A stretch of 64,000 nt of DNA from Octopus vulgaris (lineage: Eukaryota). Shown here in pieces: positions 4,401 through 63,344 of the stretch. A program made the position numbers and the translations under genes. Location: NCBI GenBank assembly GCA_951406725.2, contig OX597825.1, positions 47,430,001 through 47,494,000 on the forward strand. The letters are read 5' to 3'. The first letter of the stretch is position 1, and each line of letters begins with the position of its first letter. The notes under the pieces are model-generated. The model saw only the letters and a list, made by a program, of their open reading frames with translations. It made no database searches and was not told where the DNA came from.

Positions 4401-4876
4401 GCGGGGGGCTCATATTAGTGATGGGGGTGGGCAGTGAGCATTGATGCCGTCAAGAGGTAGGTCCCGAAACGGCGCGCATTTTCTCCTGATAACCCCATAC
4501 ACTTGCTGGCTTCCAGTATGCGGAGTCTTCGACGAGTAGCACTTGCATGTGCAAGTTATTTTCAAAACATCTAAATCGATTAAATGTACAAAACTTGTAT
4601 CAGAAGCATTTTCGGAGTGTAATATGAAGAAAATGATCTTCATTGAATAAATTTTAAAGATGTGTATATTTCCATTCATCATGGTGTTTTGATAATACAC
4701 TCTGCATTCCACATGGAATTCATTAAAGTGAACGTCCTAGACAGAGAAATATAAATATATGCATTTTTATATATCATTAAACTAAACTACAGCAGGCTAC
4801 AAACGGCAGAGTACCTTAAAGGAGGAGAAATAAGGTGATGAGTCCAACAGTTGCTTCTAGAGGGTCGGATATCCAT

Positions 4877-4919
<43 letters not shown>

Positions 4920-5357
4920 AGGTATGTATAGGTACACATGTGTATGTGTATGTGTATGTATATGTGTATATGTATGTATATGTGTATATGTATGTATGTG
5001 CACACATGTATATATATGTATGCGTGTATATGTATATATATATATATATATATATGTACATATGTGTATGTGGGTGAATGTATATATAGGTGTAAATATG
5101 TGTATATAGGGAACTAGGTGTGTTGTGTGTGCATGAGTGTATGTGCGTATGAATATATATTTTTCTGTGTATATATGTATGTGTGGTCGTGGGTATATAT
5201 ATATATATACATGTGTGTATGCGTGCATGCATGGGAGTGAGTGTATGCATATATACGTGTGTGTATGTGTAGACAGGTATATGCATGTGCATGTGTATAA
5301 ATTTGTATATGTGGGCGGGTGTATGTATGTGTGTATGTAGATATGTATGTATATGTG

Positions 5358-8571: not shown

Positions 8572-10165
8572 TACTTTATTAAAATGGAAAACCAATTCCC
8601 AAGAATCAATGGAGGTCTATATCGTGATGATTGTTCACTCTACCTTCAAAATGCTTCTAACTAAAAAGTACAAAAAGTTTAGAATAGTTTAGTCGAATTT
8701 TTCCGTAGAATGGGCTTAAGCATCGTTTTTGATGATGTAACGAAAGCCAACTTTTTAGATATTACACTTAACTTACATAATAATTCATACTTCCCATACC
8801 ACAAACCATCGACCAATCTTAAGTATATTAGCCAATTCAGTAATCATTCAAGGGCAATCACTAAGAACTTAATTAAGAATATTTTATTTAGATTATTTAT
8901 CTGCTAACGTTGACATTTTCAATGATAAGGCTGAATTTTTTAACTCTGCCTTTCTTAAAGCAGGTTATACGATAAAGTTACCTACATTAATTTCATTCAA
9001 TCTTATTCTACCTTTACTAATGGGGACATGAATTCTAATTGTAAGGATATAAACGATATCAATTTTAATTTATACGCCAACACTAAACAGGAAGAGAGAT
9101 AACCCTTATGTAACCCCCTTTTTTCATTCTAAAGGTAAATCGATGTCTTTTAAAGATAGTTACACTAAAAATAAGGCAACTAATAGTAAAACTATTTGGT
9201 TGATTATTTCTTATGGGAGGCAAATTAAATCTAATTTTCCTTTACAGTTTTGGGAAGCTATTATTAGGAATTTTCCAAAGAATTCTTGGTATTACTCTAT
9301 TATCAACTCGCACACGGTTAGGATTGGTTTTTCCAACACAAAAATTCTCTTACAAATTATCTCCTTACATAATATTAGTCTGTTAAATAAGAATGTACTA
9401 ATACTAACAAATGTACTAATACTAACATTAATTTAGCTAATACCATCCATCCCCCTAGAAATGTTATTGTCTCTGAAGTCAATTCCAACAAAATTAAGTC
9501 TAAGTCAAGTAATTCTGAAATTGAAAACTCTAAATACCAGTGTAAAATTACTTCAGGTACAGATGTCCTTTTTTATATAGGTAGTTCTTATTCTCAGTTA
9601 TCTAAAGAATTTCTAATCATTACTCTACAATTTACAATAAATGTAAATTAATTTCTATCTAAGAGACCATAATGAACAATATAATTTAGATTGGTTGATT
9701 CTCTCCATTTCGTTCCCTTATGATAAAGGCAAAAAATTCTGTCTTCTCTGTAAATGTGAACTATTTTTTATTCTTTTTCTAAAAACCCCCCTGTAAACAC
9801 GGTTACAGAGCGTGCTTACCTATGTAAAAATTAGCAGAAACACATCTTTAGTTCATATAAGTGATATCTACCATTATATGTAATTTAAACATTGATTTTC
9901 TTCTTACATTACACTTCCACTAGATACATCTTCTTCCAAGACTTTCAGGCATTATTTAATTTACATATCGTTCTATACTTCTCATTTATTTGGTTTCTGA
10001 TCTTTTTTTTATTTCCTTTACCCCTCCTCTTTCTATAGGCTACATTTGACGTTATATCCTCTAACCTTTTTTATTTTTTCTAAATAACTTAATAGCGTTT
10101 AGTTCATCACTATACATATCCATCATATTCTGTTAAAATGTCTTATTGACGAGTTTTATTTCTTA

Positions 10166-14625: not shown

Positions 14626-16395
14626 CAAGTACGAAAAATATGAGTTTATTGCCTTATACCCAAAGTTGGTCGGGCAATGTGTTAATAAATTGATTTTTCT
14701 TTTAGCTCATGTTTCTTTACCTTTTAAACAAAGTAATATAAGCTAGGAGGTATTGCTAATTACCGTTTAGTATTGTTTTAAGTTTCACTATATTTTATCA
14801 TGTGGTTGAAGATTGATAAGTTTGATGTTTTTATAAGTTTAAACTTGAGAATTGTTAAACTTAGTCAATTCAACTTTGTCAATTCTACGTGACATCTGTT
14901 TTGTATGAGAAATATATATATTTGTATGTACACGATGTGTAGGAAGTGTCAGATTAACATAGTTAACAAAAGCATAGGCTGAAAGGTCCCACCTTTTCAG
15001 GGACCAACGCTAAATATTTTATCATCACAGTACTCTTCTGGGGAACCACTGGATGCTTAGCGTTGACTCAAAACTTTCAGGATCCAATATATTTTAAATA
15101 AAATAAATGCAATATATTTAATGTCAACGGTATATGAGTAAACTTTGCAAACTAATTTAGTTGTTCATCCAAACGTACTACCATCATAAACATGCCTTTT
15201 TACAGAGTAAACGCGTAGAGGACATTCTTCGTTAACAGATGTGCCATAATCATCAACATTCAGGCTTATCATCGATTTAAACCGCTGTTGTATTAACGAA
15301 TGTTGATTATAAGGAAACTAGTTGTTAAAGAGCCTACGAATACAAATATTGGTTTTGGTTAAAGGGCATGCAGCCTGACCCAAAGTTGTAGGGTCAGTCA
15401 ATACAGTTCGTGAGAGCAATACCGGATCATAGTGTCCATGACGATACAACAATGTATCAGTAGTCACACTGCAAGTGACAATCGTTGTAGTAATGGTAAC
15501 TGCTCCAATCATACTAGCCGATAGAGAGTAGACAGTTTTATATAGGAGCAATGGACAACAGACCAGCTATAGAACCATCACTTTAGATACAGCCTTCCTA
15601 AACTTCCCAGATATCACTATACGGAACAGAGATCGGCTCGTCAATTAAATATTCATGGAGCAGAGAGACGGCCAAGCTCACAGAAGAACTACCGAGTGCA
15701 TATCAGACCAACTTTTAAGAACTCAGATGGCTAATCTTTTCATTACCACTGATATATACATAAGGTTTGTTATGAAAAGATTAGGTTGTTTCTTTTGCCA
15801 CAAAATAAACAGACGCGCTATGTAGTCATAGACATTTCTGATATGAGGAAGGAGCTGGTTTCTGACAAAGATACAAAGCTCCGTCATTCCAATGTAGATA
15901 ACGAAGACAATGCCACATTTCAAAAGTTTTGCGTATTTTTATTGCTCCACTTACAGATTGTATTTGTAATGCGAATCAGTTGGTTGATTTCTTTTTCTGA
16001 AAGCCCAAGCTTATGCAGACTGTCAGATTTTACTCACGAAACCAAGTGCACCAATTATTGGTATAAATGTAAATTGGTAATCTTGATAGTGAAGCTGGAA
16101 GTTTCGAAGCAGTTATCCATAGTTATCCACCTTCACTTTGATTTTCAAAGAGATATTCACATCAGTAGTACAGTTTACCACTATCACGGTACATACTTTT
16201 GTCTTTTCTATCCAATACAATATCCGGCCGGTTTTCCTTACACTTCCGAGATGTTTTGTTGGAATATTCCACCAGAGTTCCTTGAGCTGTTGTTTGTGTG
16301 CGTATTCCATGTATGTATGCATATATGTATGTATATGAATATATATGTCTGCGCGTGTATATCTTATATTGTCATATTATATATATATATATATA

Positions 16396-16755
16396 ACAAT
16401 TGCAGCGTGGAAGGTGTTTATAAGCCATTTAAGAAACACACAAAAGCCGTTCGACTCACTTCAACATTTAAGTTTAATTTGTCAAAATATTTTCGTCGCT
16501 AAAATCCGCGACCTGTTCATATATATATGACGAACTAACTGTTACTTTCTCAGATGCAGCACGGATTTTTGTCAGTGAACAGGTCGCGGATTTTAGCGAC
16601 GAAAATATTTTGACAAATTAAACTTAAATGTTGAAGTGAATCGAACGGCTTTTGTGTGTTTCTTAAATGGCTTATAAACACCTTCCACGCTGCAATTGTT
16701 TTCGTTTCAGCACACGATCTCAGATCAAATCACTTGCTATGCGAGTACATCTCCG

Positions 16756-16758
<3 letters not shown>
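16396..16758 (+). mobile_element. ~230-bp non-coding hammerhead-variant element (16529-16758) preceded by an inverted partial copy (16396-16520)
   Basis: A second full copy at 40251-40482 (-) has the same termini; both are embedded in (TA)n. Confidence 0.8.
16568..16617 (+). ncRNA. Hammerhead-like motif with a G3-C8 swapped core
   Basis: TTTGTCA-GTGAACA-g-GTCGC ggatttta GCGAC-GAA-AATATT-T-TGACAAA. 7-bp stem I, 5-bp stem II, palindromic AATATT. Confidence 0.6.
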
Positions 16759-18169: not shown

Positions 18170-19055
18170 TTTCCATCCACTCTCAAATGCAGGAATATAT
18201 TTGATAGGCTTTCTCTGAAATTATCATATAGCTGCTGCCCCAGTATGAAAAGTATCATTACTGGTGGTCAGCACCAAGAACCTGAATCCAGCTGCAACTG
18301 TCACGACCCAGCATCCTGTCCACTTGACCAATGATGTATAACTAAATCTATCATAAATAAGGCAGATGTTACTGCAATCCTAAATAATAGAATTGATAAG
18401 ATCTATCTTGAATTATGTAAAGGAGATTTTAAAAAACCACTATGCCTATGACATAGCCTCCTTCCGACAGAGAGACAAAAGTAACGCTACTAAGTTGGTT
18501 AGCTATGTATGGACTTTAGAAGATAACGAAACACCGCATGCCATTAAATGGAAAGTAATTGAGAAAGCCATACCTTGTGTGAATGAATCGAATAAATGTA
18601 GATCTTGTTAGGTTGAAAGAGCGCAGACCCTGTTCAGATCTAAGATCCCTAAATATATTCTGAAGAATTGGGAAAATTCCACCCATTCCTGACTGACTTG
18701 ATATCTTTCCAGCCTTATCATTTAAGGTCTAAGGAGGATAGATCTTTTACCTTTTACTTTATATTCTTGACATTTTAGCTTATGTTTTCGTCCTCCGTCT
18801 TTCGTTTTCCATTGTTTTCTGTCTGCGTTTTCTAATTGCTGCCTCCTCAGTGTTTTCGCGCTTCTTCTATTATTCACATTCTCTAGTTTGTTATGATATG
18901 TGGTTTGCACCTGAAGAATATGTTTGAGTTTTCTCAACATATGAAACTATTAGTAGTGCTTTGATACATGTTTTGTGATATTTAAATAAATATTATTTAT
19001 CTCTCACCAGTTGGAGTTTTTTTGGGGGGTTGGATTTTCTTCACGGATCATTACA
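18170..19055 (+). mobile_element. Penelope-like 3' fragment (GIY-YIG remnant plus terminal repeat)
   Basis: CNCHDPASCPLD, KSNATKLVSYVWTL...IKWKVIEKAIPC...KCRSC; hammerhead downstream. Confidence 0.8.
18907..18959 (+). ncRNA. Type I hammerhead ribozyme, canonical core
   Basis: GCAC-CTGAAGA-ATATGTTtGAG tttt CTCAACATAT-GAA-ACT att AGT-A-GTGC. Confidence 0.85.
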
Positions 19056-31626: not shown

Positions 31627-32172
31627 TCCTTTGTTTTCTTCTCACTTATTTGTGTCTCTCCTTACTAACCGTCAGCCATTTTATATTTCTATTGTATGTC
31701 TTCATTTGCGCATGCTTATGTCTCTATGTGCGTCTATGTTTATTTAGTGTGTGTGGGGGGATGCCTATAATATTTGTATCTTCTGTTTATAAACAGAAGA
31801 TACAAATATTACAGGCATCCCACCACACACATACTGAATAAACATAGACGCACATAGAGATATAAGCATGCGCAAATGAAGACATACAATAGAAATACAA
31901 AATGGCAGACGGTTAGTAAGGAGAGACACAAATAAGTGAGAAGAAAACAAAGGACCACTGATGCAGTCACAGGAGTGTGACGAAAGAACTCTGGCCGAAA
32001 TAAGATTAAGATTAATGTAAAAAATAAATATCACTGAAGCAAAATAACACCAAATATATAGTGCGTGTGTTTTTATTGGCTAAACTGGCAATATGACCAT
32101 TCCGAAATATAACAATATCTGTTTCAACACACGACTTCACATAAAAAATCTTGCTCAACAAATATTTAAACG
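31627..32172 (+). mobile_element. Solo 3' terminal repeat of the 60013-63344 Penelope family with a spacer-less fold-back
   Basis: 31794-32172 matches 63022-63344 and the reverse complement of 60013-60392; palindrome centred at 31789/31790. Confidence 0.85.
31953..31996 (+). ncRNA. Hammerhead-like motif with a 1-nt core insertion (CUGAUG-C-A); copies at 63180-63223 (+) and ~60189-60232 (-)
   Basis: CCA-CTGATGCA-GTCACA ggag TGTGAC-GAA-AG aa CT-C-TGG. Confidence 0.55.
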
Positions 32173-35970: not shown

Positions 35971-36397
35971 GTATGTGAGTACGTATGTACGTATGTGTAT
36001 GTACATATACATGTGTACGTGTGTAGATTTTATGAACGATATTTCTACCTTTACGTGGCTGCATTGCTATAATATCTTGTACCTTTTACGTTTATTTACT
36101 TTCACCACACGTATTAGAGTAACTTCCATTTATTCAACGCTCTTTTTCGTAGCGTTTTTGTTTTAATAAGTGATGTGGATATCTTTTAGCTCCGACATCT
36201 GGAACTCTGAGTATTATTATGACAACTAACTGATTATCTTATCTTATATTATATTATATTATATTATATTATATATATATATAAATTCCTCTATTTACAT
36301 AATACCGAGGTCTCATTCATTCTTTTGTTGTCATATTATTATCAATATATTTAGATATATATATATGTATGTTTATAAATATATAAATATAAATATA

Positions 36398-39333
36398 TGC
36401 ATTGCACTCACAGAAACGCATCTTGAACCCGATATAGGTGATGCAGAAATACACATGCCGCAATATGCAGTCATACGCACAGATAGAAAAGGGAGGAGCC
36501 ATGGTGGAGTTGCAACGTACATCCGAGATGACCTCATGCCCCAGGTCCTGTTGTCATATTCAAACTCAGTGTGTGAAACTCAAATTGTACACATAAGACA
36601 ACTGAATATCGTCATATGCACTACATATCGCCCGTCAGATGCCCCAAATCACTCAGGCATGTTTGAAGACTGCCTAACAAAAATAGGAGAAGTCCTCACC
36701 AACCTTGAACAACACAACAGTGTATTCTTCATGGGTGACTTTAACCTCCCCGATGTGGAATGGCCTGGGGGGTGCAGATGCTCCCAGGGATGACACACCA
36801 TCAGCAGGCACAGGCAGAGTCCCTGCTCCATCTCACAAATGCCTCTTTCATGGAGCAGATAGTTCTGCAACCAACAAGGGCAGATAATATACTGGATCTC
36901 TGCTTCACGAACAATATGGATATTATCCATAATGTTAATGTGATGCCGACAATGATCACGGATCACAACAAAATAGAGCTGTCTATGTATGTAGACACAT
37001 AGCCTATACGAAGCATCCACCATCTCTCCAACTTAAACTTTCATAAAGCAAACTGGAAGTTGATTGAGAAAGAGATCCTCAAACAGGATTGGCTTGAATG
37101 TCTCTCCACACCGGACATAAACATGAAGCACAAACACTTCATGTCCATAATACAAGCCATATGTGACAACTATGTCCCTGTGTGCAGGGCCAGCACACAC
37201 AAAAACAAAAACAGGATCCCTAGAGAAAGGAGGATTCTTATGAGACGACGGACAAGGATTGCAAACCGCCTGAGCAAGCACACCAAAAGTGATGAGAAGT
37301 CTCGGCTCGAGAGAATGCTAATGGAAACTGAGAAAAGTCTGCATCAGTCCCATGAAAAGGAGAGAGCAGATAAAGAAGCTTGGGTAACAGAAAATATAAA
37401 ATCAAACCCTAAAGCTTTCTTTAAGTTTGCCAAAGAGACAGCCACAGTACACCAGAGAATAGGACCTTTCTTCCAAAAAGATGGCTCTCTCACAGGAAAT
37501 CCCACGAGGATAAGTGAAATACTGAACGAACAATTCCAAAGTGTGTTCACTACACCTCTAGAACGCAGGCAAGTAAACAACCCAGAAGAATTCTTTACCA
37601 CTTTACCTGCGGCCAAAGAGGCAAAAATTGAGTACATCAACATCGAAGATGATGATATCACACTAGCCATAGATGAGATTGACACAAACTCAGCTGCTGG
37701 ACCTGATGGATTCCCAGCGAATCTTCTCAAATCGTGCAAACGAGCCATTGCAAAACCGCTACAGCTTCTTTTTCAGAGCTTTCTTGCAAGTGGTAAGCTC
37801 CAAGTCAAATTGAAAGAGGGGGTAATATGCCCTATCCATAAGGGAGGTAGCAGAGCAGATGCTAAAAATTATAGGCCTATTTCTCTGACCTCACGCATCA
37901 GCAAAGTCATGGAACGAATAGTCCGTAAGAAACTAATCATGTTTCTTGAAGAAAATGACTTACTGTCTGACACCCAGCATGGATTTTGACCAGGTAGAAG
38001 CTGCCTAACACAGCTCCTGCAACACTATGACTGGGTGTTGAAACAGCTACTGAATGGCTCAAATGTGGATGTAATATATCTCGACTTTGCAAAAGCCTTT
38101 GATAAGGTCGAGCATGGTATGATCTGTCACAAACTGCGTGGTCTCGGCATAGGCGGAAAACTTGGAGAGTGGCTGCACAACTTCCTAAAAGACAGAAAAC
38201 AGGCAGTTGTGAGCAATGGAGCCGCCTCCAAGGAAACACAAATAACAAGCGGTGTCCCACAGGGCACTGTCTTGGGGCCACTGATGTTCATAGTGACCCT
38301 TTCAGACATGCCTTCAGTTGCTACGATGACCACCCTTGCTAGCTATACAGATGACACAAAAGTCTCCCACGCAATACAAAACGCTGAAAATATTGCGCAT
38401 CTGCAACAGGAGTTGGACACAATATACAGGTGGGCTGAGGACAACAACATGCAGTTTAATGCAGGTAAGTTGCAGGCCCTGCGTTACTGGCACACAAAGG
38501 TAAACGACGTGCAGACTGAATACACTGGCCCAGGAAGAATTGCAATCCCTGAGTCAAAATCAGTGCGTGACCTGGGCATTGACATGAGCAATGATGCATC
38601 TTTCCAAGTGCATATTGCTAATCTGGTGATAAAATGCAGACGGCTAGCTGGATGGATTCTCCGAACTTTCAGAACAAGAGAGAAGGAGACACTGATGGTC
38701 CTATGGAAAACATTCGTACTCAGCCGCTTGGACTACTGCTCCCAACTGTGGTCACCACACAATATAAAACTAACAGCAGAACTCGAAGCAATTCAGAGAA
38801 GCTACACAAAGAAAATCGTCTCAATGCAAAATATCAGCTACTGGGAAAGACTGAAGGTATTAAACCTCTTCTCCCTAGAGCGGAGGCGGGAGAGATATGC
38901 GGTGATATACATCTGGAAAATCCTGGAGGGTCTTGTCCCAAACTTTGGCATTCAAAGTTACTCCAACCGCAGAACGGGGCGCCACTGCATGGTGCCAAAG
39001 ATTCCAACATCACCATCAAAATACAGGTCCAGATACTGCAACAGCTTGGGTTTCAGAGGACTACAGCTCTTTAACATCCTCCCTAAATTCCTGAGAGACT
39101 TACATGGTGTGGATGTGGGTTTCTTTAAAACTAAACTGGATCTCTTCTTTTCGGGAGTCCCAGATGAACCTACCCCACGACAGGAGACGCAGATGCGGGC
39201 AGCAGCATCGAACTCCCTTCTTGATCAAGTGCCACGTATCAGAGGTGGATTCACAAATTAGTGTAGCTCATTCAGCGGTGGTGCCCCAGCATGGCCGCGG
39301 CCTTCGGGCTAAGACATTTTTAAGGATTTAAGG
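36398..39333 (+). mobile_element. CR1/L2-group LINE ORF2 (APE plus RT), 5'-truncated, with few lesions and an intact 3' tail
   Basis: ALTETHL, MGDFNLP, ILDL, TDH; NYRPISLTS, YLDFAKAFDKV, GVPQGTVLGP, YTDDTK; frameshift ~36770, stops at 37000 and 37987. Confidence 0.92.
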
Positions 39334-39369: not shown

Positions 39370-39624
39370 ATTTCGTTTTTGTATTTAGTTTGCAAGATTC
39401 TTTATGTGAGTTCGTGCGTTGAAGCATATTCTGTTGTGTCTGGGGAGAGTCCTTTTCTTTTTAGTCTTATAATTTAACAGACTCACCTGTAAAATTTCCA
39501 CTTATTTCTTATTTTCATTTTCTTAAAATTTTCGTTGCGTCTTGCAACCTTTTCAAGAGTATTGAAAATGTTGCAAGACGCAACGAAAATGACTCTCCCC
39601 AGACACAACAGTTTATAATTATAA

Positions 39625-40099: not shown

Positions 40100-40482
<383 letters not shown>

Positions 40483-41370
40483 TATATATGTACGTATGTA
40501 TGTGTGTATGTATGTATACGCGCATGTATGCATGTATGTAGGTATGTACGTACATACACCTGTGTGTATGTATGTATGTATGTATATATGTAAGTATGTG
40601 TGTGTATATGCACGCACACACACACTATAAACTTAAAGCTATAAACCTGTAGTGATGGATAGATGTAGACTGACCACTCATCACAATAATATCAAATTTC
40701 AACCTTCCCCGCCGAAACTAGGAAGTGATTTACGACCCTCAACCCCAAAACAAAACTCTAAAACCTATTATCAGACATTTATCTCTATATCACAAAACTT
40801 TTGTTTTACTATTGCTTGTTTTTTTTTGTATTTTCTTCCTCCCTTACATCTAGTTAGTTCAGGTTAAATATATATAAGTATGTATGTGTGCATGTATGTA
40901 TGTATGTATGTATGTATGTATGTATGTATGTATGTATGTATGTATGTATGTATGTACGTATGTATGTGTGTATGCACGTACGTACGCCTGTGCGTATGTA
41001 TACTCGCACGTATGCATGTGCCTATGTATGTGTGTGCGTACATGTGTGTGCGTATGTACGTGTGTATGCCCATACGTAGGTATGTATGTATGTTTGTACT
41101 CATGTGCTACATATGTATGTGAGTATCTAGGAGAATGGGCAGACGCGTCTGTGTGTGTGTGTGTGTGTGTACATGTGTATGTGCATGGGAACGTATGTCC
41201 GTGTACTGGTATGTGTCCGTCCAAGTTGTGTACATGACTGTTACTTTGTTGAAGGTTGTATATATATATACACACATATATGTTTGTATAGACGCACACA
41301 CACATATATATATATGTGTGGGTGTGTGTTTGTTCCTCTCATCATGTAAACGAGAGAGAGAGAGGGGTGG

Positions 41371-42740
41371 TTATACAATGGTCCTCCTGAATGGGATCTG
41401 GATGTTACTCCATTTGGATTTTCGGTTGAGAGTAGGTTTGTATTCTTGTATACAAACAGCTTCTGTGACCTGTCTCAACATTGCATCGGTGGGATGTGTT
41501 GATAGGATGTTCAACTTAAGTTTCCCTAAGGATCTCTTGTGGCAGTCTACAGCATGTTGGTAGAAGATGGAGTTTGGCTTCCTTTCAATGTAGTTGTCCA
41601 GGTGTTCTTTGAACCTATCATTGATACTCCCAGAAGTCTCACCTATGTATGACTCTGGGTTAGTCGTGCAAGCTCCCTCCTGGCACTTAATCTGGTATAC
41701 AGTGCCCTTGGTTTTGCAATTTACATGTGGATTTGTCGAACATACTGCACAATTACTTTGACAGGTGATTCTATCAAATGGATATGTTCTGCATAATGCC
41801 GATTTGATAGTCCTACCTGTCTTTTCTACAACTTTGATTTTAAGGCCAGTAGTGCGCAGGATTTTCTTGAATGCCTTACTTAGCTCGTTCTTAGGTGTGG
41901 CGTCAACGAACATTACTCCGTGAAATTTCCTGTTATCATACCAAGTATCGTTTCTCATCCTTTTGTTGGTGTCCCTCTCTAACCTATTCCAGAACTTGTT
42001 GCGGTATAGGGGGCATATACCGTTTTCGTCGTCCCTTAGAATGCGTTCGAATCTTGCTTTCGCTCTCTTGTACACTCTGACTCTATCGTCTTGTGTGTAT
42101 TCGGAGCGTTGCATTCGGAATATGTAGTGCTGGATGTGTTGTTGTCGTTCTTGTGGTTGGCATAGTGGTGATACATTCCTCATTACTCTAATTAAGTCTG
42201 CCACTAGGATGTTGAGTTTGGCAGTATTCGACATAGCTGAGTCACTACGGATGACTAGTGGATTAGCCATCGGTTTCTAATAGTGTGAGTGGAGTATACA
42301 GGGTTTAATGGTTCCATTAACCATAGCATCTTCTATCCATAGCTCAGTATCTAGGACGGGTAATCGTTTACTGGGGTGTTTAGAGGGGTAGTCTACGGTA
42401 ACTTTTATACTGTTTTGGACAGAGTCAGCTATGTGTTGTATAGATGTCATCACCTGTTCTTCACTTGGTAGAGGGCCCATAACTGTGTCTGTATTATAAC
42501 ATTTCATAACAAGGTTAATGTCGTCGACGTAACGAGAGTACATAGCCAAGTGGATGTTACGGTTTGCTAGGCACTGTTTAAATTGTTTGTCCCACCATAC
42601 CATGAAGAGGTTTGCAACGTCACCGGCGATCCCTACTCCAATAGCACCGCCTTTCGTCTGCCTATACAATTTGTTGTCAAACAAATTGTATAGGCAGTAT
42701 ATGATCCATGTGGCTCTTATGATCTTTGCGAAGGCCATAT
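41371..42740 (-). mobile_element. Penelope-like element, 5'-truncated RT plus GIY-YIG, one frameshift at ~42275
   Basis: YRQTKGGAIG, YSRYVDDINL, LPVLDTELW; GTVYQIKC...SYIGET; related to the 60919-62676 family. Confidence 0.9.
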
Positions 42741-42789
42741 AGGGGTGGGACTTCGTTGTTGGTGGTTAAGAAGTTGTTAGCTGTGCGCT

Positions 42790-44879
42790 TCTCCGACTGA
42801 AGAATGATACTCAGTATATTGCCCAGATTCTATCCTCTCATTAAAACACACAAGGAGAACAACACGATCCAGATTAGACCCATCGTCTCCAGCGTAGAAG
42901 GACCCCTTTATAAAATACCCTGGCTACTTTCTCATTTCCGGAAACCCATACTCTCCACCTTCCATGGACACGTCAAGAACTCCGATGAAGTCATCAAAAG
43001 ACTGCGCCAACTACCCCCCCCCCCCAGATCAACTCAGACAAAACAGATATGTCTTTAGTCTTGACGTTGTCTCTATGTACACAACAGTGCCAGCACATTT
43101 GGCGGTCAACCTATTGATTGACTGAATAATTGCGTCCGACATCCACTGCTTCGGACTTACTACAGTTGATATACATCAACTTTTATCCATCATCGTGGAC
43201 AACACATACTTCTCTTTCCAGGACCACATATACAAACAGACAACAGGTCTCCTCATGGGATCCATAGTATCTAGCCATCACCTATATGAACCACCTGGAA
43301 CGTCGAGCACTGAACATCTGCCGCTCATGCGCCTTCTTCATCAGGTATATAGATGACATCCTCATACTCACATCCTCCCGTGAAGAGGCTGACAGAATAT
43401 TCCCGACGTTCAGCAGCATGAACACGAACATAAAGTTCACTATAGAACATCCCGACAACACTGGATCACTATCACTACTTGACTTCCAACTGAAAATAAC
43501 AGAAGGAGAGATTCATACCGAGTTCTACAGAAAAGCAACCAGTAGTGGTATATTTGTCCACTACAGTTCAGCGCTTCCACTCGGTGACAAGTTAGGATAC
43601 GCCAGATATGAACTTGAACGCATCCAGTGCATATGCAGCAGGACAGAAGACATGGTGACCTACACTACACGCTTCCTAGAAATATTACACACCACCCAGA
43701 TAAACCCAACACACACGGACACATACAGAACCTCTGATAAATACAACACACTTACACACACATACACACCTACACAAGCCCCCACACACATACATATGCA
43801 CTCTCACACACACATACACACACACCACAAGGACAATTAAAACACAAACATACTCAGACGGACACAACACACACACTCACGCACACACACATAACATCCC
43901 CACCAAGACAAAAAACACACAAACATACTCAGACAGAGACACACACACACTCATGTGCACATACACTCACATACACACACTCACGTACACACACTAACAT
44001 CCCCACCAACACAAAAAACACACAAGCATACACATGCACCCACAGGTGCACACATTCACACTCGCGAACAAACACATACACACACATGCGCACACACAAC
44101 GCCCTAACAAATATTAATCACACACACACCATACTACCAAATATAAAACACACACAGACACATTTACACACACCACAATAATCTCTGGAACTAATCAAAA
44201 ACGGCTCACACACACAAACACAAACACATGTATATATACACACATAGAGACGTACACAGTGACACACACACTCACACGATTCTGACCTCTAAGACCAGTC
44301 CCCAAAACCACTGAACCATGACAGACTAACCCAGACACAAAAATCCTTTCAATTCCACATTGCTCTTCCTTCCCTCACCCCAACCAACCTCCCTCACTGT
44401 CCCTTAAAATAATACACAACCCTGAGCTTCGCACCAAATAAAAAAAAATGCTAAAACAGGTCAGTTCAACTCAAATTCTTTGTAAACTTCTAAATATATC
44501 CCCTTCTGTGTATATAAATACTACCAAACATGATTTTTATTGAACTTCTAATACTTTTCTGTGTAAGTATATAGATACTTCCAAACAAACATGCTTTCTA
44601 TTGAACTCCTAATATTTTTATCGGACTTTTTGTTTAATATTTTCTCAGATATTTCCATGTAAACTGTTTTGAACATTTTCTTATTATCAAAGAATGTATA
44701 TATGTATTTTAATACTTTTGTAACAACCAGTACTTAACACAACAAAGCTTATACAAAGCTTTACATTTTACTTTTGATAATCATTTTAAAAAAAGTGAAA
44801 CCGTCAAATGAATAAACATCTTTAAAATTGCATTTTCAAACCTTCTTTCATATATATTTCCAATCGTGCAGTATCTTAC

Positions 44880-48774: not shown

Positions 48775-50990
48775 CAACCAACCAACTAGGGCGAATAACA
48801 TTCTGAATATCTACTTCACGAACAATATGGACATCATTCATGATGTGAAAGTGACACCGACATTAGTCTCGGATCACAACATAAAAGAGCTGTCTATGTT
48901 TGGACTGAAAGTAACCAGAGACACAGCCTAAAGGAAGCACCCGAAATCTCTCCATTCTGAACTTCCACAAAGCAGATTGGAAATCGATCTAAAAAGAGAT
49001 CCTCAGAGAGGACTGGCCGAAATGTCTCTCCACACCAGACATTGACATGAAACTAGAATGTTTCATGTCTTCTGTGCAAGCTGTATGCCAGAAATTTGTC
49101 CCAGAGCACAAGGCCAAAACAAATAGGAGCAAGATTCCAAGAGACAGGAAGATCCTCATGAGTCGACGGATGAAGGTTGCAAATCGACTCAACCAACATC
49201 CCAAAAGTAGCGAAACGTCCCGCCTAAAAACAACACTGATGGAAATCGAAAAAAAGGCTGCAACAATCCTATGTGAGAGAGAAAGCAGACAAAGAAGCCT
49301 GGGTTATAAAAAACATTAAATCAAACCTTCTTTCATTACGCGAAAGAAACAGTCTCAGTACACTACAAGATAGGACCTCTCCTCTAAAAGGATGGCTCCC
49401 TCACAGACATTCCAACTAAGATCAGTGAGATATTGAATGACCAGTTCAAAAGTGTCTTTACCACCCCGTTGGAACACAGACAAGTAACCGAACCAGTGAA
49501 CTTCTTTGCCGCCTCACCTATAACCAGCGAGGCAGTTACAATAGAATACATTGACATTAGCGAAGAAGATGTACTACTAGCTATAGATGAAGTGGACGCA
49601 AACTCAACTGCTGGCCCTGATGGTTTCCCAGCAATCCTCCTCAAAGCGTGCAAGCATGCCCTGGCAAAACCCCTCAAGATTCTCTTCCAGAGCTTTCTTA
49701 CAAATGGCAAACTGCCAAACAAGCTGAAGGAGGGAATAATATGCCCAATACATAAAGGGGGAAGTAGAGCAGATGCCAAAAACTATAGGCCTATCTCTCT
49801 GACTTCACACATCACCAAAGTCGTGGAGCAAAGTCAGAAAGAAACTAATCGCATTCCTTGAGGAAAATAACTTGCTGAGTGATACCCAGCATGGTTTTCG
49901 ACCAGGTAGGAGCTGCCTGACCCAGCTCTTACAACATTATGACTGGGTGTTGAGGCAGTTACTCAACAAATCAAATGTGGACGTAATATACCTTGATTTT
50001 GCAAAAGCTTTCGACAAGGTGGTTCATGGTATGATATGTCACAAACTTCGTGACCTCGGCATAGCTGGAAAACTTGGAGTGTGGTTGCATGACTTCCTGA
50101 AAGATAGGAGTCAGGCAGTAGTGGTTAATGGAGCCACCTCTATGAACACACAAATAGTGAGCGGTGTTCCACAGGGCACTGTCTTGGGACCACTGCTTTT
50201 TATAGTGGCCCTCTCAGATATGCCCTCAAATGCCCGGATAGCCACTCTGGCCAGCTATGCAGACGATACGAAAGTCTCGCAGAAAATACAGAACCCCAGC
50301 GATGTTGCACACCTGCAGCAGGAGTTGGACGTAATCTACAGATGGGCTGAGGATAATAATATGCAGTTTAATGCTGAAAAATTCCAGGCCCTGCGCTACC
50401 AGCATCCAAAACTGAATATTAAACTTACAAGGTTCACCGGTCCACAGGGAATTTCAATCCCAGAGCCTAAGTCTGTGAGAGACCTGGGTATCAACATGAG
50501 TGATGATACCTCTTTCCATGTGCACATTACCAGGATGGCGACAAAGTGCAGACGACTGGCTGGGTGGATCCTAAGAACATTCAGAACCAGACATAAGGAA
50601 ACTATCGTGTATGCATGTATATATATATATATATATATATATGAATCTATCTATATATGTATATGTATGTGTGTATGTCTATATATGTATGTAAGTATAT
50701 ACATACACATATATATAGATGAATGTAGTCAATATATAATGTATATATATATATATTATATATATATACTTGCACAAAGTAGATGTAGCGGTTTTTAAAT
50801 CAAAGCTGGACCTCTTCCTGTCGAGAGTCCCAGATGAACCTACCTCACGGCAAGAGGTGCAAATGAGGGTAGCTATATCAAACTCCATTCTTCACCAAGT
50901 GCCACATATTAGAGGAGGCCCTTAGTAATAACAGTGTAGGGCAAAACGGCGGTGCATCAGCATGGCCGCAACTCTGAGCTGAAACAAAAA
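48775..50990 (+). mobile_element. CR1/L2-group LINE copy, 5'-truncated, with an internal deletion replaced by microsatellite (50605-50768)
   Basis: ORFs 49433-49861 and 49872-50603 with YLDFAKAFDKV, GVPQG, YADDTK; 3' tail at 50945-50990. Confidence 0.9.
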
Positions 50991-51099
50991 AAAAAAAAAC
51001 AAATAACAAAGAAATTAAGTTAGGAATAATATTTCCTGAAATAATTATTATTATATATATTATATATATAATAACTATATATACATATATTTTTTTTTC

Positions 51100-52394
51100 T
51101 AGTTTCAGCTCAGAGCTGCGGCCATGCTGATGCACCGCCTTTTTGTGCTACACTGTTATTGCCACGAACCTCGTCTAATATGTGGCACTTGGTGAAGAAT
51201 GGAGTTTGATACAGCTACTCTCATTTGCACCTCTTGCCGTGAGGTAGGTTCATCTGGGACTCTTGACAGGAAGAGGTTCAGCTTTGATTTAAAAACCGCT
51301 ACATCTACTTTGTGCAAGTTCCTCAGACTCTTTGGGAGAATATTAAAATGCTGTGGGCCCTTGAAACCCAGGCTGTAGCAGAAGCTGGTCCTGAAGCGTG
51401 ATGGCATTGCTGGAATCTTTGGCACTATGCAGTGTCGTCCCGTTCTAGCATTGGTGTAGCTTACAATGCCAAAATTTGGCACAATTCCTTCCAGGATCTT
51501 CCAGACATATATTACTGCATACCTCTCCCGTCTTCTCTCCAGGGAGTAGAGTCTCAGCTGTTTCAACCTTTCCCAGTAGCTGAGCTGTTGCAAAGAGACG
51601 ATCTTCTTTGTGAATCTTCTCTGGATTACTTCAAGGTCTGCTGTTAATTTTACACTGGTGGGTGACCATAGCTGTAAGCAGTAATCCAGGCGGCTGAGGA
51701 CGAATGTCCGCCAGAGGACCATCATGGTTTCCTTATCGCTGGTTCTGAATGTTCTTAGGATCCACCCAGCCAGTCGTCTACACTTTGTCGCCATCCTGGT
51801 AATGTGCACTTGGAAAGAGGTATCATTACTCATGTCGATACCCAGGTCCCTCACAGACTTAGGCTCTGGGATTGAAATTCCCTGTGGACCGGTGTATCCT
51901 GTAAGTTTAATATTCAGTTTTGGATGCTGGTAGCGCAGGGCCTGGAATTTTTCAGCATTAAACTGCATATTATTATCCTCAGCCCATCTGTAGATTGAGT
52001 CCAACTCCTGCTGCAGGTGTGCAACATCGCTGGGGTTCTGTATTTTCTGCGAGACTTTCGTATCGTCTGCATAGCTGGCCAGAGTGGCTATCCGGGCATT
52101 TGAGGGCATATCTGAGAGGGCCACTATAAAAAGCAGTGGTCCCAAGACAGTGCCCTGTGGAACACCGCTCACTGTTTGTGTGTTCATAGAGGTGGCTCCA
52201 TTAACCACTACTGCCTGACTCCTATCTTTCAGGAAGTCATGCAACCACACTCCACGTTTTCCAGCTATGCCGAGGTCACGTAGTTTGTGGCATATCATAC
52301 CATGATCCACCTTGTCGAAAGCTTTTGCAAAATCAAGGTAGATTACGTCCACATTTGACTTGTTGAGTAACTGCCTCAACACCCAGTCATAATG

Positions 52395-52397
<3 letters not shown>
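51100..52397 (-). mobile_element. CR1/L2-group LINE 3' portion with open RT, tail-to-tail with the previous copy
   Basis: Open frame from QHYDWVLRQ to HIRRGSWQ*; nearly identical to 49934-50985. Confidence 0.92.
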
Positions 52398-60012: not shown

Positions 60013-60550
60013 CGTTTAAATATTTGTTGTGCAAGATTTTTTATGTGAAGTCGTGTGTTGAAACAGATATTGTTATATTTCGGAATGGTCATATTGCCAG
60101 TTTAGCCAATAAAAACACACGCACTATATATTTGGTGTTATTTTGCTTCAGTGATATTTATTTTTTACATTAATCTTAATCTTATTTCGGCCAAAGTTCT
60201 TTCGTCACACTCCTGTGACCGCATCAGTGGTCCTTTGTTTTCTTCTCACTTACTTGTGTCTCTCCTTACTAACCGTCAGCCATTTTGTATTTCTATTGTA
60301 TGTCTTCATTTGCGCATGCTTATATCTCTATGTGCGTCTATGTTTATTTAGTGTGTGTGTGTGGGGGATGCCTGTAATATTTGTATCTTCTGGTTATATA
60401 CATTCTTGTAATTTGTATTTTGTTTTTGTTGTTGTTGCTTTTGTTCTAATTTTGTTCATGTGTTTACATCCACCCATTATTATCATTACATATGCTTGTA
60501 TGTATGTATAACAACAATATTAGTAATTATAATAATAAATCTAATTTAAA

Positions 60551-60606
<56 letters not shown>

Positions 60607-62772
60607 TATACACATATACATACACATATACATATATATAGTTATTCATTTCTATTTCTTTAATTATCTGTGTATTTATTATGTTTGCAGGATCCACTAT
60701 CGTCATATGTTGTGGTGTGCGCTATTGCTCCATTCTAGTTTTCTATTCAGGCTAGGTTTATTTTCTATTATATGTGTAGCTTCTGTAATTTGTCTAATTG
60801 TTGCATCTGTTCTATGTGTGGACAATATCTTAATCTCTATGTTATTGATTGATCCCCCGTGTTCTTGTTCAGCGTGTTGGTACAGAATCGATGAGCTTTT
60901 ACCTTCCTTGAGTTGTCTTCAATGTTCATTCACCCGCTCACCAATGCTTCTTGCTGTTTCCCCTACGTATGTTACTGTCTTGTTACTGCATCGTCCCTCT
61001 ATACATCTTATACTATAGACCACATTTCTGGCTTTACAGTTTGTTTGTGGGCTAAATCTACATACAGTGCAATAGTTATCCGTACAGAGAGTTCTACTAA
61101 AAGGATAGCTTCTACCAATTATAGATCTGATAGTGTTGCCTGGCTTTTCAACAACCTTAATTCTTAGTTTAAGTTTATCTAGGGTCCTTCTAAAGCGGTA
61201 CGCCAGTTCACCTCCAGGGGTGGTGTCAAGGAACATGACACTCTGGTATTTATGGCTATCATACCAAGAGTTGGCCTTCCCTATTTTCTTTTTTGTCCTT
61301 TCTATAGTGTTCCATGACTTGTTCCTATAGAGTGGGCAAATCCCATTCCTATCATTACATAATATATTATCAAATTTCTTCATGGCTCCTTTGTATACTC
61401 TGACCCTTTCTTTATGGCTGTAACCTGAGAACTGCATGCGGTGAATGAAATACTGTATGTGTCTCTTTAATTCTGTAGGCTCGCACATGCGTGACACATT
61501 TCTCATTATTCTGACGAGGTCTGCCATCAAAATATTGAATTTGGCATTGCCCGCAATGGCTGAGTTCCGGTGGATCAGGTATTTTGAGGCCATAGGTTTT
61601 GCATAGTATGAATGAAGGATTTGGGTTTCATTTTTCACAATTTCTAGCCAGAGTTCAGTGTCTAGTACTGGTAGTCTATGGTTGGGGTGTTTAGTGGGGT
61701 AGTCTATTGTGACCTTAATACTCTGGTGGATGGAGTTAGCTATTTGCTGGATGCTCTCCATAGTATTAGTTTCTATTACTATATCAACATTACTCTCTTG
61801 TGGGGGTGCCTTTACTCAGCCATTGCGGGCAATGCCAAATTCAATATTTTGATGGCAGACCTCGTCAGAATAATGAGAAATGTGTCACGCATGTGCGAGC
61901 CTACAGAATTAAAGAGACACATACAGTATTTCATTCACCGCATGCAGTTCTCAGGTTACAGCCATAAAGAAAGGGTCAGAGTATACAAAGGAGCCATGAA
62001 GAAATTTGATAATATATTATGTAATGATAGGAATGGGATTTGCCCACTCTATAGGAACAAGTCATGGAACACTATAGAAAGGACAAAAAAGAAAATAGGG
62101 AAGGCCAACTCTTGGTATGATAGCCATAAATACCAGAGTGTCATGTTCCTTGACACCACCCCTGGAGGTGAACTGGCGTACCGCTTTAGAAGGACCCTAG
62201 ATAAACTTAAACTAAGAATTAAGGTTGTTGAAAAGCCAGGCAACCCTATCAGATCTATAATTGGTAGAAGCTATCCTTTTAGTAGAACTCTCTGTACGGA
62301 TAACTATTGCACTGTATGTAGATTTAGCCCACAAACAAACTGTAAAGCCAGAAATGTGGTCTATAGTATAAGATGTATAGAGGGACGATGCAGTAACAAG
62401 ACAGTAACATACGTAGGGGAAACAGCAAGAAGCATTGGTGAGCGGGTGAATGAACATTGGAGACAACTCAAGGAAGGTAAAAGCTCATCGATTCTGTACC
62501 AACACGCTGAACAAGAACACGGGGGATCAATCAATAACATAGAGATTAAGATATTGTCCACACATAGAACAGATGCAACAATTAGACAAATTACAGAAGC
62601 TACACATATAATAGAAAATAAACCTAGCCTGAATAGAAAACTAGAATGGAGCAATAGCGCACACTACAACATATGACGATAGTGGATCCTGCAAACATAA
62701 TAAATACACAGATAATTAAAGAAATAGAAATTAATAACTATATATATGTATATGTGTATGTATATGTGTATA

Positions 62773-62858
<86 letters not shown>

Positions 62859-63344
62859 TTTTCAATTAGATTTATTATTATTATTATTACTAATATTGTT
62901 GTTATACATACATACAAGCATATGTAATGATAATAATGGGTGGATGTAAACACATGAACAAAATTAGAACAAAAGCAACAACAACAAAAACAAAATACAA
63001 ATTACAAGAATGTATATAACCAGAAGATACAAATATTACAGGCATCCCCCCACACACACACTAAATAAACATAGACGCACATAGAGATATAAGCATGCGC
63101 AAATGAAGACATACAATAGAAATACAAAATGGCTGACGGTTAGTAAGGAGAGACACAAGTAAGTGAGAAGAAAACAAAGGACCACTGATGCGGTCACAGG
63201 AGTGTGACGAAAGAACTTTGGCCGAAATAAGATTAAGATTAATGTAAAAAATAAATATCACTGAAGCAAAATAACACCAAATATATAGTGCGTGTGTTTT
63301 TATTGGCTAAACTGGCAATATGACCATTCCGAAATATAACAATA
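60013..63344. mobile_element. Young Penelope-like insertion: two nearly identical 3' halves in head-to-head inverted orientation within the KLHL10-like intron
   Basis: 60067-61563 is the reverse complement of 61814-63344; GIY-YIG NVVYSIRC...TYVGET; the right arm is open to 62676, the left arm has a TGG>TGA stop at ~60919. Confidence 0.92.

Follow-up and report, generated by a model that had tools for sequence, protein, structure and literature searches.

A hammerhead-homologous motif with G3-C8 in place of C3-G8 in the pseudo-LTR of a Penelope-like element from Octopus vulgaris

Results

The window, i.e. the whole stretch of 64,000 nucleotides of Octopus vulgaris DNA analysed here, holds copies of three families (A, B and C) of Penelope-like elements (PLEs), among them two full copies of a 230-bp family A unit that lie on opposite strands, share 95.7% identity and had been picked out by an earlier, sequence-only reading (Table 1). 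The termini quoted there are those at which the copies end, save for one flanking T per side that had wrongly been included. That reading also saw the unit as ORF-less and as bounded by (TA)n in both copies, neither of which holds: (TA)n adjoins the unit at its 3' end alone, the 5' side running into element sequence, and the ATG inside the unit opens a frame that reaches the open reading frame (ORF) for the reverse transcriptase (RT) in a tandem copy elsewhere in the genome (L083). Two features had escaped it, namely an inverted piece of the unit beside copy 1, without G3 and without the 5' strand of stem I, and, upstream of copy 2, an ORF for an RT and a GIY-YIG endonuclease, 92% identical in amino acids to the long ORF of genomic locus L081, albeit with an in-frame stop and an internal deletion. 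An RT/GIY-YIG element sharing the end of the unit, the search for which had been proposed as a check, is thus present here and in genomic loci. Of the two identities that had been offered, a retrozyme-like element or a Penelope terminal repeat, it is the latter that stands; a stand-alone 230-bp retrozyme does not fit copies that lack a defined 5' end and are linked to an ORF.

Table 1. Features of PLE families A, B and C in the window (positions count from its first nucleotide; pLTR, pseudo-LTR)
Feature	Position	Strand	Remarks
Family A pLTR, copy 1	16529..16758	+	5'-truncated PLE insertion; longer 3' end (ORF +92), then (TA)n
Inverted partial copy of the family A unit (unit positions 48-172)	16395..16519	-	adjoins the 5' side of copy 1; shorter 3' end (ORF +33)
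Type I hammerhead-homologous motif, copy 1	16568..16617	+	
Stem I of this motif (7 bp)	16568-16574/16611-16617	+	
Stem II of this motif (5 bp)	16583-16587/16596-16600	+	
Core of this motif, 5' part	16575-16581	+	GTGAACA; G3 at 16575, C8 at 16580; extra G at 16582
Core of this motif, GAA	16601-16603	+	
Palindromic AATATT (AAUAUU helix III)	16604-16609	+	followed by U17 at 16610, the predicted cut position (3' side)
Start of the PLE ORF (codons 1-31)	16667..16758	+	ATG at 16667; inside the 230-bp unit
Family A pLTR, copy 2	40252..40481	-	G3-C8 kept; G12 replaced by T (40409)
3' UTR of that element, rich in microsatellites	40482..41370	-	continuous with copy 2
Broken family A ORF	41371..42812	-	RT (YVDD), Zn-finger linker and GIY-YIG; upstream of copy 2
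Family B hammerhead motif	31952..31997	+	C3-G8
Family B motif	60188..60233	-	C3-G8, C9, U17; downstream of ORF remains 60724-61791
Family B motif in inverted partner copy	63179..63224	+	
Family C motif	39518..39561	-	U3-A8; inverted partial partner from near 39556 (+)

In the genome (2.8 Gb, 227 contigs), the best 30 copies have the 3' end against (TA)n in common but not the 5' end; upstream, GTACATATATAT is common to 25 of these 30, the unique 3' UTR of the element is reached in 19, and ORF sequence more than 90% identical is reached in 13 of 20 loci that were extended to 10 kb and had been picked mostly for long upstream homology. A stand-alone element possessing a 5' end of its own was rejected on these grounds (no common 5' end, upstream linkage to UTR and ORF), and the short family A copies are ordinary 5'-truncated PLE insertions. 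From pLTR to pLTR the family A element measures about 4.3 kb and encodes a telomerase-like RT with a C-terminal GIY-YIG endonuclease in a single ORF. Locus L083 presents a pLTR (4697-4925), the ORF, into which the frame from the unit ATG continues, and a second pLTR (8958-9182), 4,261 bp from repeat to repeat, together with an inverted 5' copy; locus L081 (2971-6045, minus strand) offers a 1025-aa frame with YVDD and a Pfam GIY-YIG domain above cut-off. Its predicted protein structure (pLDDT 80.8) has telomerase RTs (TERTs) as top three PDB matches; a sequence search of the PDB gave no match, and a protein search returned 336 relatives, the closest named one, at 60% identity, being from Octopus vulgaris. 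The 3' ends of family A fall into two groups, at unit positions ~171 and ~230 (ORF +33 and +92), with (TA)n next in most copies, and partial tandems and inverted 5'-truncated copies occur (L083; the inverted piece beside copy 1). Some inverted or direct junctions are perfect fold-backs centred on the helix III AATATT (C4:131113944-131113991, C5:7194597-7194644).

A contact between C3 and G8 is central to the active hammerhead fold. In the motif that sits inside the family A pLTR, the literal C3 and G8 of CUGANGA are absent and G3 and C8 are found instead, while the remaining type I core (U4 G5 A6, G12 A13 A14, A15.1-U16.1, H17) is present in copy 1 and in the family majority. Copy 2 fails here: its core reads TAA where GAA is expected, and because G12 is absent (40409) the whole core is confined to copy 1. 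G12 is called critical for the hammerhead in a review (PMC8495972). The layout previously ascribed to both copies therefore survives as to G3-C8, which both keep, and breaks down at the GAA of copy 2. Minimum free energy folds contain stems I and II (z -3.1 for copy 1, -3.7 for copy 2), and a motif with equally long stems was met in 0 of 30 block-shuffled windows. With Rfam, no hammerhead family matched the 230-bp unit at E<=10, and on the window the 150 listed of 218 matches are microsatellite noise; the expectation that CUGANGA searches would miss the motif is borne out, G3-C8 being fixed in the family. By eye, CUGUUAC (16539-16545) could pair with the core GUGAACAG, leaving one bulge; the computed fold of 16529-16660 prefers stems I and II over this pairing, and no counterpart of it was seen in family B.

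Throughout the genome, an exact 31-letter pattern in which positions 3, 7 and 8 were left free has 1,956 matches (control, 0), of which 1,937 carry G3; GTGAACA is read in 98 of the first 100, and C3-G8 in 0 of the 19 that are without G3. A looser G3-C8 pattern yields 8,412 matches versus 260 for its control. An older A subfamily, ~90% identical to the young one and different in loop II, has G3 in 30 of 31 copies and C8 in 31 of 31. Between the two subfamilies fixed changes in the motif are restricted to loop II, the other core positions and all stems being intact in both, albeit the counts behind this (0 of 42 in core and stems, 9 of 155 outside the motif; p 0.11) are not significant. Consulting genomic copies had been suggested along with the original description; their consensus keeps G3-C8 and the stems, and the stems covary across families (below). 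Since the family A copies represent one evolutionary event, such a test must run across families. A possible second G3-C8 family, suggested by a match at C1:12071836, turned out to be a single copy with no RT nearby and was taken as chance; further G3-C8 families may exist beyond the pattern and motif-model searches used here.

Family B, whose 1312-aa frames share 58% amino acid identity with family A, has a hammerhead motif in the same place that shows C3-G8, shares the extra G and has compensated stems, and its pattern has 3,374 genomic matches with C3-G8 in 98 of the first 100. Young, near-identical copies (L089:7219-7264 and, in the window, the motif behind the ORF remains and that of the inverted partner) carry C9 and U17, as opposed to canonical A9 and C17 in older copies (L101-L103), so the young, expanding family B has drifted off the hammerhead consensus. 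One 1312-aa ORF of this family (L089:2763-6698) has a long asparagine-rich low-complexity insert ahead of the RT. Family C was found with a model built from the motifs of family A, family B and relatives; its pattern has 2,657 genomic matches, and U3-A8 is read in 27 of 27 motifs from 30 loci. Here (window 39518-39621; L164-L175, L179-L208) helix III is a 4-nt palindrome and proximal stem I has 3 bp, and the N-terminal peptide (0 of 5,000 shuffles) as well as the endonuclease are related to those of the sister families. Among 28 metagenomic loci, DNA behind the ORF is available in 12 and a hammerhead motif in seven of these, with C3-G8 in L137, L138, L139, L142 and L153 and U3-A8 in L136 and L140; all seven have the extra G, helix III is palindromic in each, and L136 also has C9. 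L148 and L150 carry a core with a long unresolved insert, and the DNA behind the ORF of L143, L144 and L154 gave no motif. The motif of L138 (4967-5015) has U15.1-A16.1 and UAGCUA as palindromic helix III.

Positions 3 and 8 form a Watson-Crick pair in 10 of 10 families (C-G in six, U-A in three, G-C in one), and this all-Watson-Crick outcome corresponds to 1 of 840 arrangements, kinship uncorrected. We aligned 11 motifs (A twice, B twice and seven relatives, family C being left aside), cut to our own reading of the motif: 89% of cells are paired versus 22-48% in slid controls, the score is reached by 0 of 500 shuffles, and both sides have changed in 10 of 11 pairs. U4, G5, A6, G12, A13 and A14 are invariant in all 11 motifs, the proteins of which are 30-58% identical. 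An RT tree (14 rows, midpoint-rooted, comprising neither family C nor reference PLE clades) unites A and B as sisters with support 100 and places the U3-A8 relatives L136 and L140 apart, and because of this topology G3-C8 would, most simply, be a derived state of the A branch. At least three separate 3-8 changes (A; L136; L140) fall within the clade, all Watson-Crick and 0 mismatched; family C may add a fourth. To arrive at G3-C8 from C3-G8 or U3-A8 by single changes, a mismatched intermediate is needed. U17 as a specific offset for G3 (avoiding G3-C17), an idea prompted by a remark in PMC3884650, found no support: U17 is present in 6 of 10 families, and in L137, L138, L139 and young family B it accompanies C3-G8.

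Discussion

Our findings identify family A as a new core variant within the known PLE hammerheads and not as a new class of mobile element. We consider it rather likely that the 230 bp are the 3' pLTR of an autonomous PLE and that its hammerhead, with G3-C8, still cleaves itself after U16610, slowly and with the help of a dimer or of protein. A bolder proposal, quite possible but held tentatively, is that a PLE lineage with an unusually long fingers insertion has tried C-G, U-A and G-C at the 3-8 pair, that its three sister families are spreading in one genome and that family A represents an active G3-C8 hammerhead in ~8,000 copies, slow and dependent on dimer or protein. If true, nature itself would have furnished proof of the 3-8 contact in the rarest of its forms, and entire families of animal ribozymes would be missing from counts made by core-motif searches. 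Reports of 'no hammerhead' for PLE families rest on CUGANGA descriptors, and these miss A, C and young B (~14,000 pattern matches). Moreover, G3-C8 beside C3-G8 and U3-A8 sisters, in the same genome and element context, would provide a matched set with which to probe the purpose of PLE hammerheads and a comparison for whether they must cut.

As for the mode of action, the PLE of the anole (Poseidon PAc, Anolis carolinensis; Frangieh et al. 2024, PMC11167929) has a hammerhead that cuts only with the PLE protein, that is dead as C3G or G8C single mutant and that has cleavage partly restored in C3G/G8C; its RT begins synthesis at two internal sites within the first part of the ORF, its endonuclease cuts AT-rich DNA, and dead hammerhead mutants insert normally in vitro. 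By analogy with this element (PMC11167929), the family A protein would bind pLTR/ORF-start RNA and nick AT-rich DNA, and reverse transcription from two internal sites would give rise to the two 3' ends; early stops of reverse transcription may then account for the many short copies, e.g. copy 1 in the window. In tandem transcripts, two pLTRs might pair via AAUAUU to form a 6-bp helix III and cut slowly after U17, a double hammerhead that would trim such transcripts only occasionally and leave most templates of genomic copies uncut. The swap itself would be a single event, starting from C3-G8, on the branch that leads to family A.

We favour a double hammerhead as the active form because helix III lacks the length that a monomer would require; its closure in a monomer has a computed cost of 5.4 kcal/mol. 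Computed energies are -27.2 kcal/mol for the double hammerhead, -26.6 for two open monomers and -31.3 for a non-hammerhead dimer; with the latter 4 kcal/mol lower and the double hammerhead about level with open monomers, it is plausible from these energies that a protein assists the family A double hammerhead.

If cut RNA were often the template, 5' breakpoints would be expected to accumulate at the cut site. Tallied by eye among the first 100 of 311 matches, 33 are indel variants and 67 breakpoints spread over 11 positions, nine of them at the cut site and 2-11 per position over the ten positions upstream of it, i.e. there is no pile-up at the predicted cut. A cleavage-derived 5' truncation was therefore dismissed, and the templates appear to be mostly uncut. 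The same distribution suits a scenario in which the element is just as described but the motif no longer cuts, its fold, including a 3-8 pair of whichever Watson-Crick kind, being kept as a structural signal, e.g. one bound by the PLE protein or one controlling the start codon that lies 92 nt downstream. This would also agree with the tolerance of C9 (young B, L136), of U15.1-A16.1 (L138) and of U17 (6 of 10 families), and with the anole PLE, for which insertion in vitro proceeds without cleavage and no reads end at the site (PMC11167929). It sits less well with the invariance of U4, G5, A6, G12, A13 and A14 in 11 of 11 motifs at 30-58% protein identity, with the 3-8 pair as a contact of the active fold (PMC3088659) and with an engineered G3-C8 PLE hammerhead that does cut (PMC11167929), so to our minds a purely structural role is unlikely, albeit worth keeping in sight. 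Our preferred reading remains that the family A motif is predicted to cut itself slowly. Since young family B has C9 together with U17, and L136 has C9, fast catalysis seems unneeded for spread; judging from these comparisons of sequence, the fold appears to be under constraint across families and fast cleavage not to be needed.

Alternatively, the swap could be a neutral relic, fixed by chance in one master after the ribozyme had died and merely looking compensatory. Few masters stand behind all A copies, hence thousands of them count as one event; the sparing of the core between A subfamilies stays above significance (p 0.11), and G-C has a single event to its name among 10 families. Against such drift speak the 3-8 changes in A, L136 and L140, at least three and separate, which end Watson-Crick and never mismatched, and the two A subfamilies, whose changes in loop II have left the other core positions and the stems intact, so we rate a relic as improbable.

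Spread via a small circular RNA as a stand-alone 230-nt retrozyme or SINE is very improbable and largely refuted, for while short copies far outnumber the 5' part of the ORF in sequencing-run contigs (14 presumed-RNA and 6 unlabelled sets from four organisms), where depth is not copy number, and one locus is an array of six 426-bp units with the old-subfamily pLTR, family A lacks a defined 5' end, is linked to the ORF in 13 of the 20 loci that were extended and shows 0 head-to-tail 230-bp repeats among the loci examined, and the unit of that array includes unrelated flanking DNA and damaged stems. The array (L130:1-2580, contig C27) consists of tandem units each made of an old family A pLTR plus such flanking DNA and looks like a pLTR-born satellite. 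Loose ends with GTGAACAGG occur in X8, X15 and X17, which speaks for presence only; the sequencing-run contigs held no informative ends or joints for family A. Metazoan non-LTR retrozymes, for which an origin from PLE pLTRs has been proposed (PMC7229834; bioRxiv 10.64898/2026.07.22.740005), do resemble the unit in their type I hammerhead and similar size. They are, however, ORF-less tandem repeats with canonical hammerheads (units of 170-400 nt, head to tail and outside a coding element), whereas the family A unit forms the terminal part of an element that codes for protein.

The autonomous PLE that we favour instead has close parallels. Metazoan PLE hammerheads are described as carrying one additional nucleotide at 9/10.1, as having a helix III that is palindromic, as slow and weakly active and as acting in dimers (Cervera & de la Pena 2014, PMC4209133). 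Family A shares with them the type I architecture, the location in the pLTR, the extra nucleotide between 9 and 10.1, G10.1-C11.1, the small palindromic helix III and the thousands of copies that are mostly solo and truncated. It departs from them in G3-C8, which is not among the variants given in the parts of that paper on PLE hammerheads, and in the co-existence of C-G, U-A and G-C in sister families of one genome; U3-A8 covariation was noted there in Schistosoma PLEs. With PAc (PMC11167929), family A has in common the RT with a C-terminal GIY-YIG, a pLTR that overlaps the ORF start, two 3' ends ('tail') and AT-rich targets. In contrast, the PAc core is naturally C3-G8 and its ORF start lies inside the ribozyme, while in family A the ATG follows 92 nt after position 3, the tail comes to ~59 nt, and a long insertion separates RT motifs A and B.

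Partial tandems, inverted 5' copies, an optional tail and a microsatellite bias are hallmarks of PLEs at large (Craig et al. 2021, PMC8557442). As in Neptune and Nematis of that study, family A combines a CX3CxxC linker ahead of the GIY-YIG (CQSNCAVC) with (TA)n targets and tandem plus inverted 5' copies; besides the linker, the long A-B insertion is present too. From the motif A Asp to the motif B Gln its RT counts 128 aa (L081), about twice the spacing of the Neptune and Hydra rows in the supplement (PMC8557442), and this segment resembles an insertion in fingers, which EN+ PLEs with a C-terminal endonuclease are said in PMC8557442 to be without. The words LRWR and KDHK are shared with Hydra sequences of the supplement (PMC8557442), yet family A has DKS in place of DKG/DKT, and the Hydra clade, marked by RWK, DKT, a CxCX5C linker, a length <3 kb and no CCHH, differs from it in that family A spans 4.3 kb, has a CX3CxxC linker and shows candidate C-C-H-H residues. 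Going by such sequence features, its RT type is possibly an undescribed PLE lineage.

Natural U3-A8 is on record among hammerhead core variants, and G3-C8 is unnamed in the core-variant section of the same paper (Perreault et al. 2011, PMC3088659). In the literature covered, with Lunse et al. 2017 and the figures and supplements of surveys outside its scope, G3-C8 came up in engineered cases only and not as a natural pair, and what it contained on octopus Penelope hammerheads gave nothing on family A; our claim of novelty for natural G3-C8 is limited to this compass.

The window contains further mobile-element remains. Three hammerhead-like motifs at 18911 (+), 46044 (+) and 22588 (-) have canonical CUGANGA cores and probably belong to other PLE families. 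Remains of a different PLE-type RT (42801-43840, +) lie head-to-head with the family A fragment, and remains of a LINE-type endonuclease and RT, with diverged and inverted copies, are found at 36230-39261 (+) and about 48779-52397.
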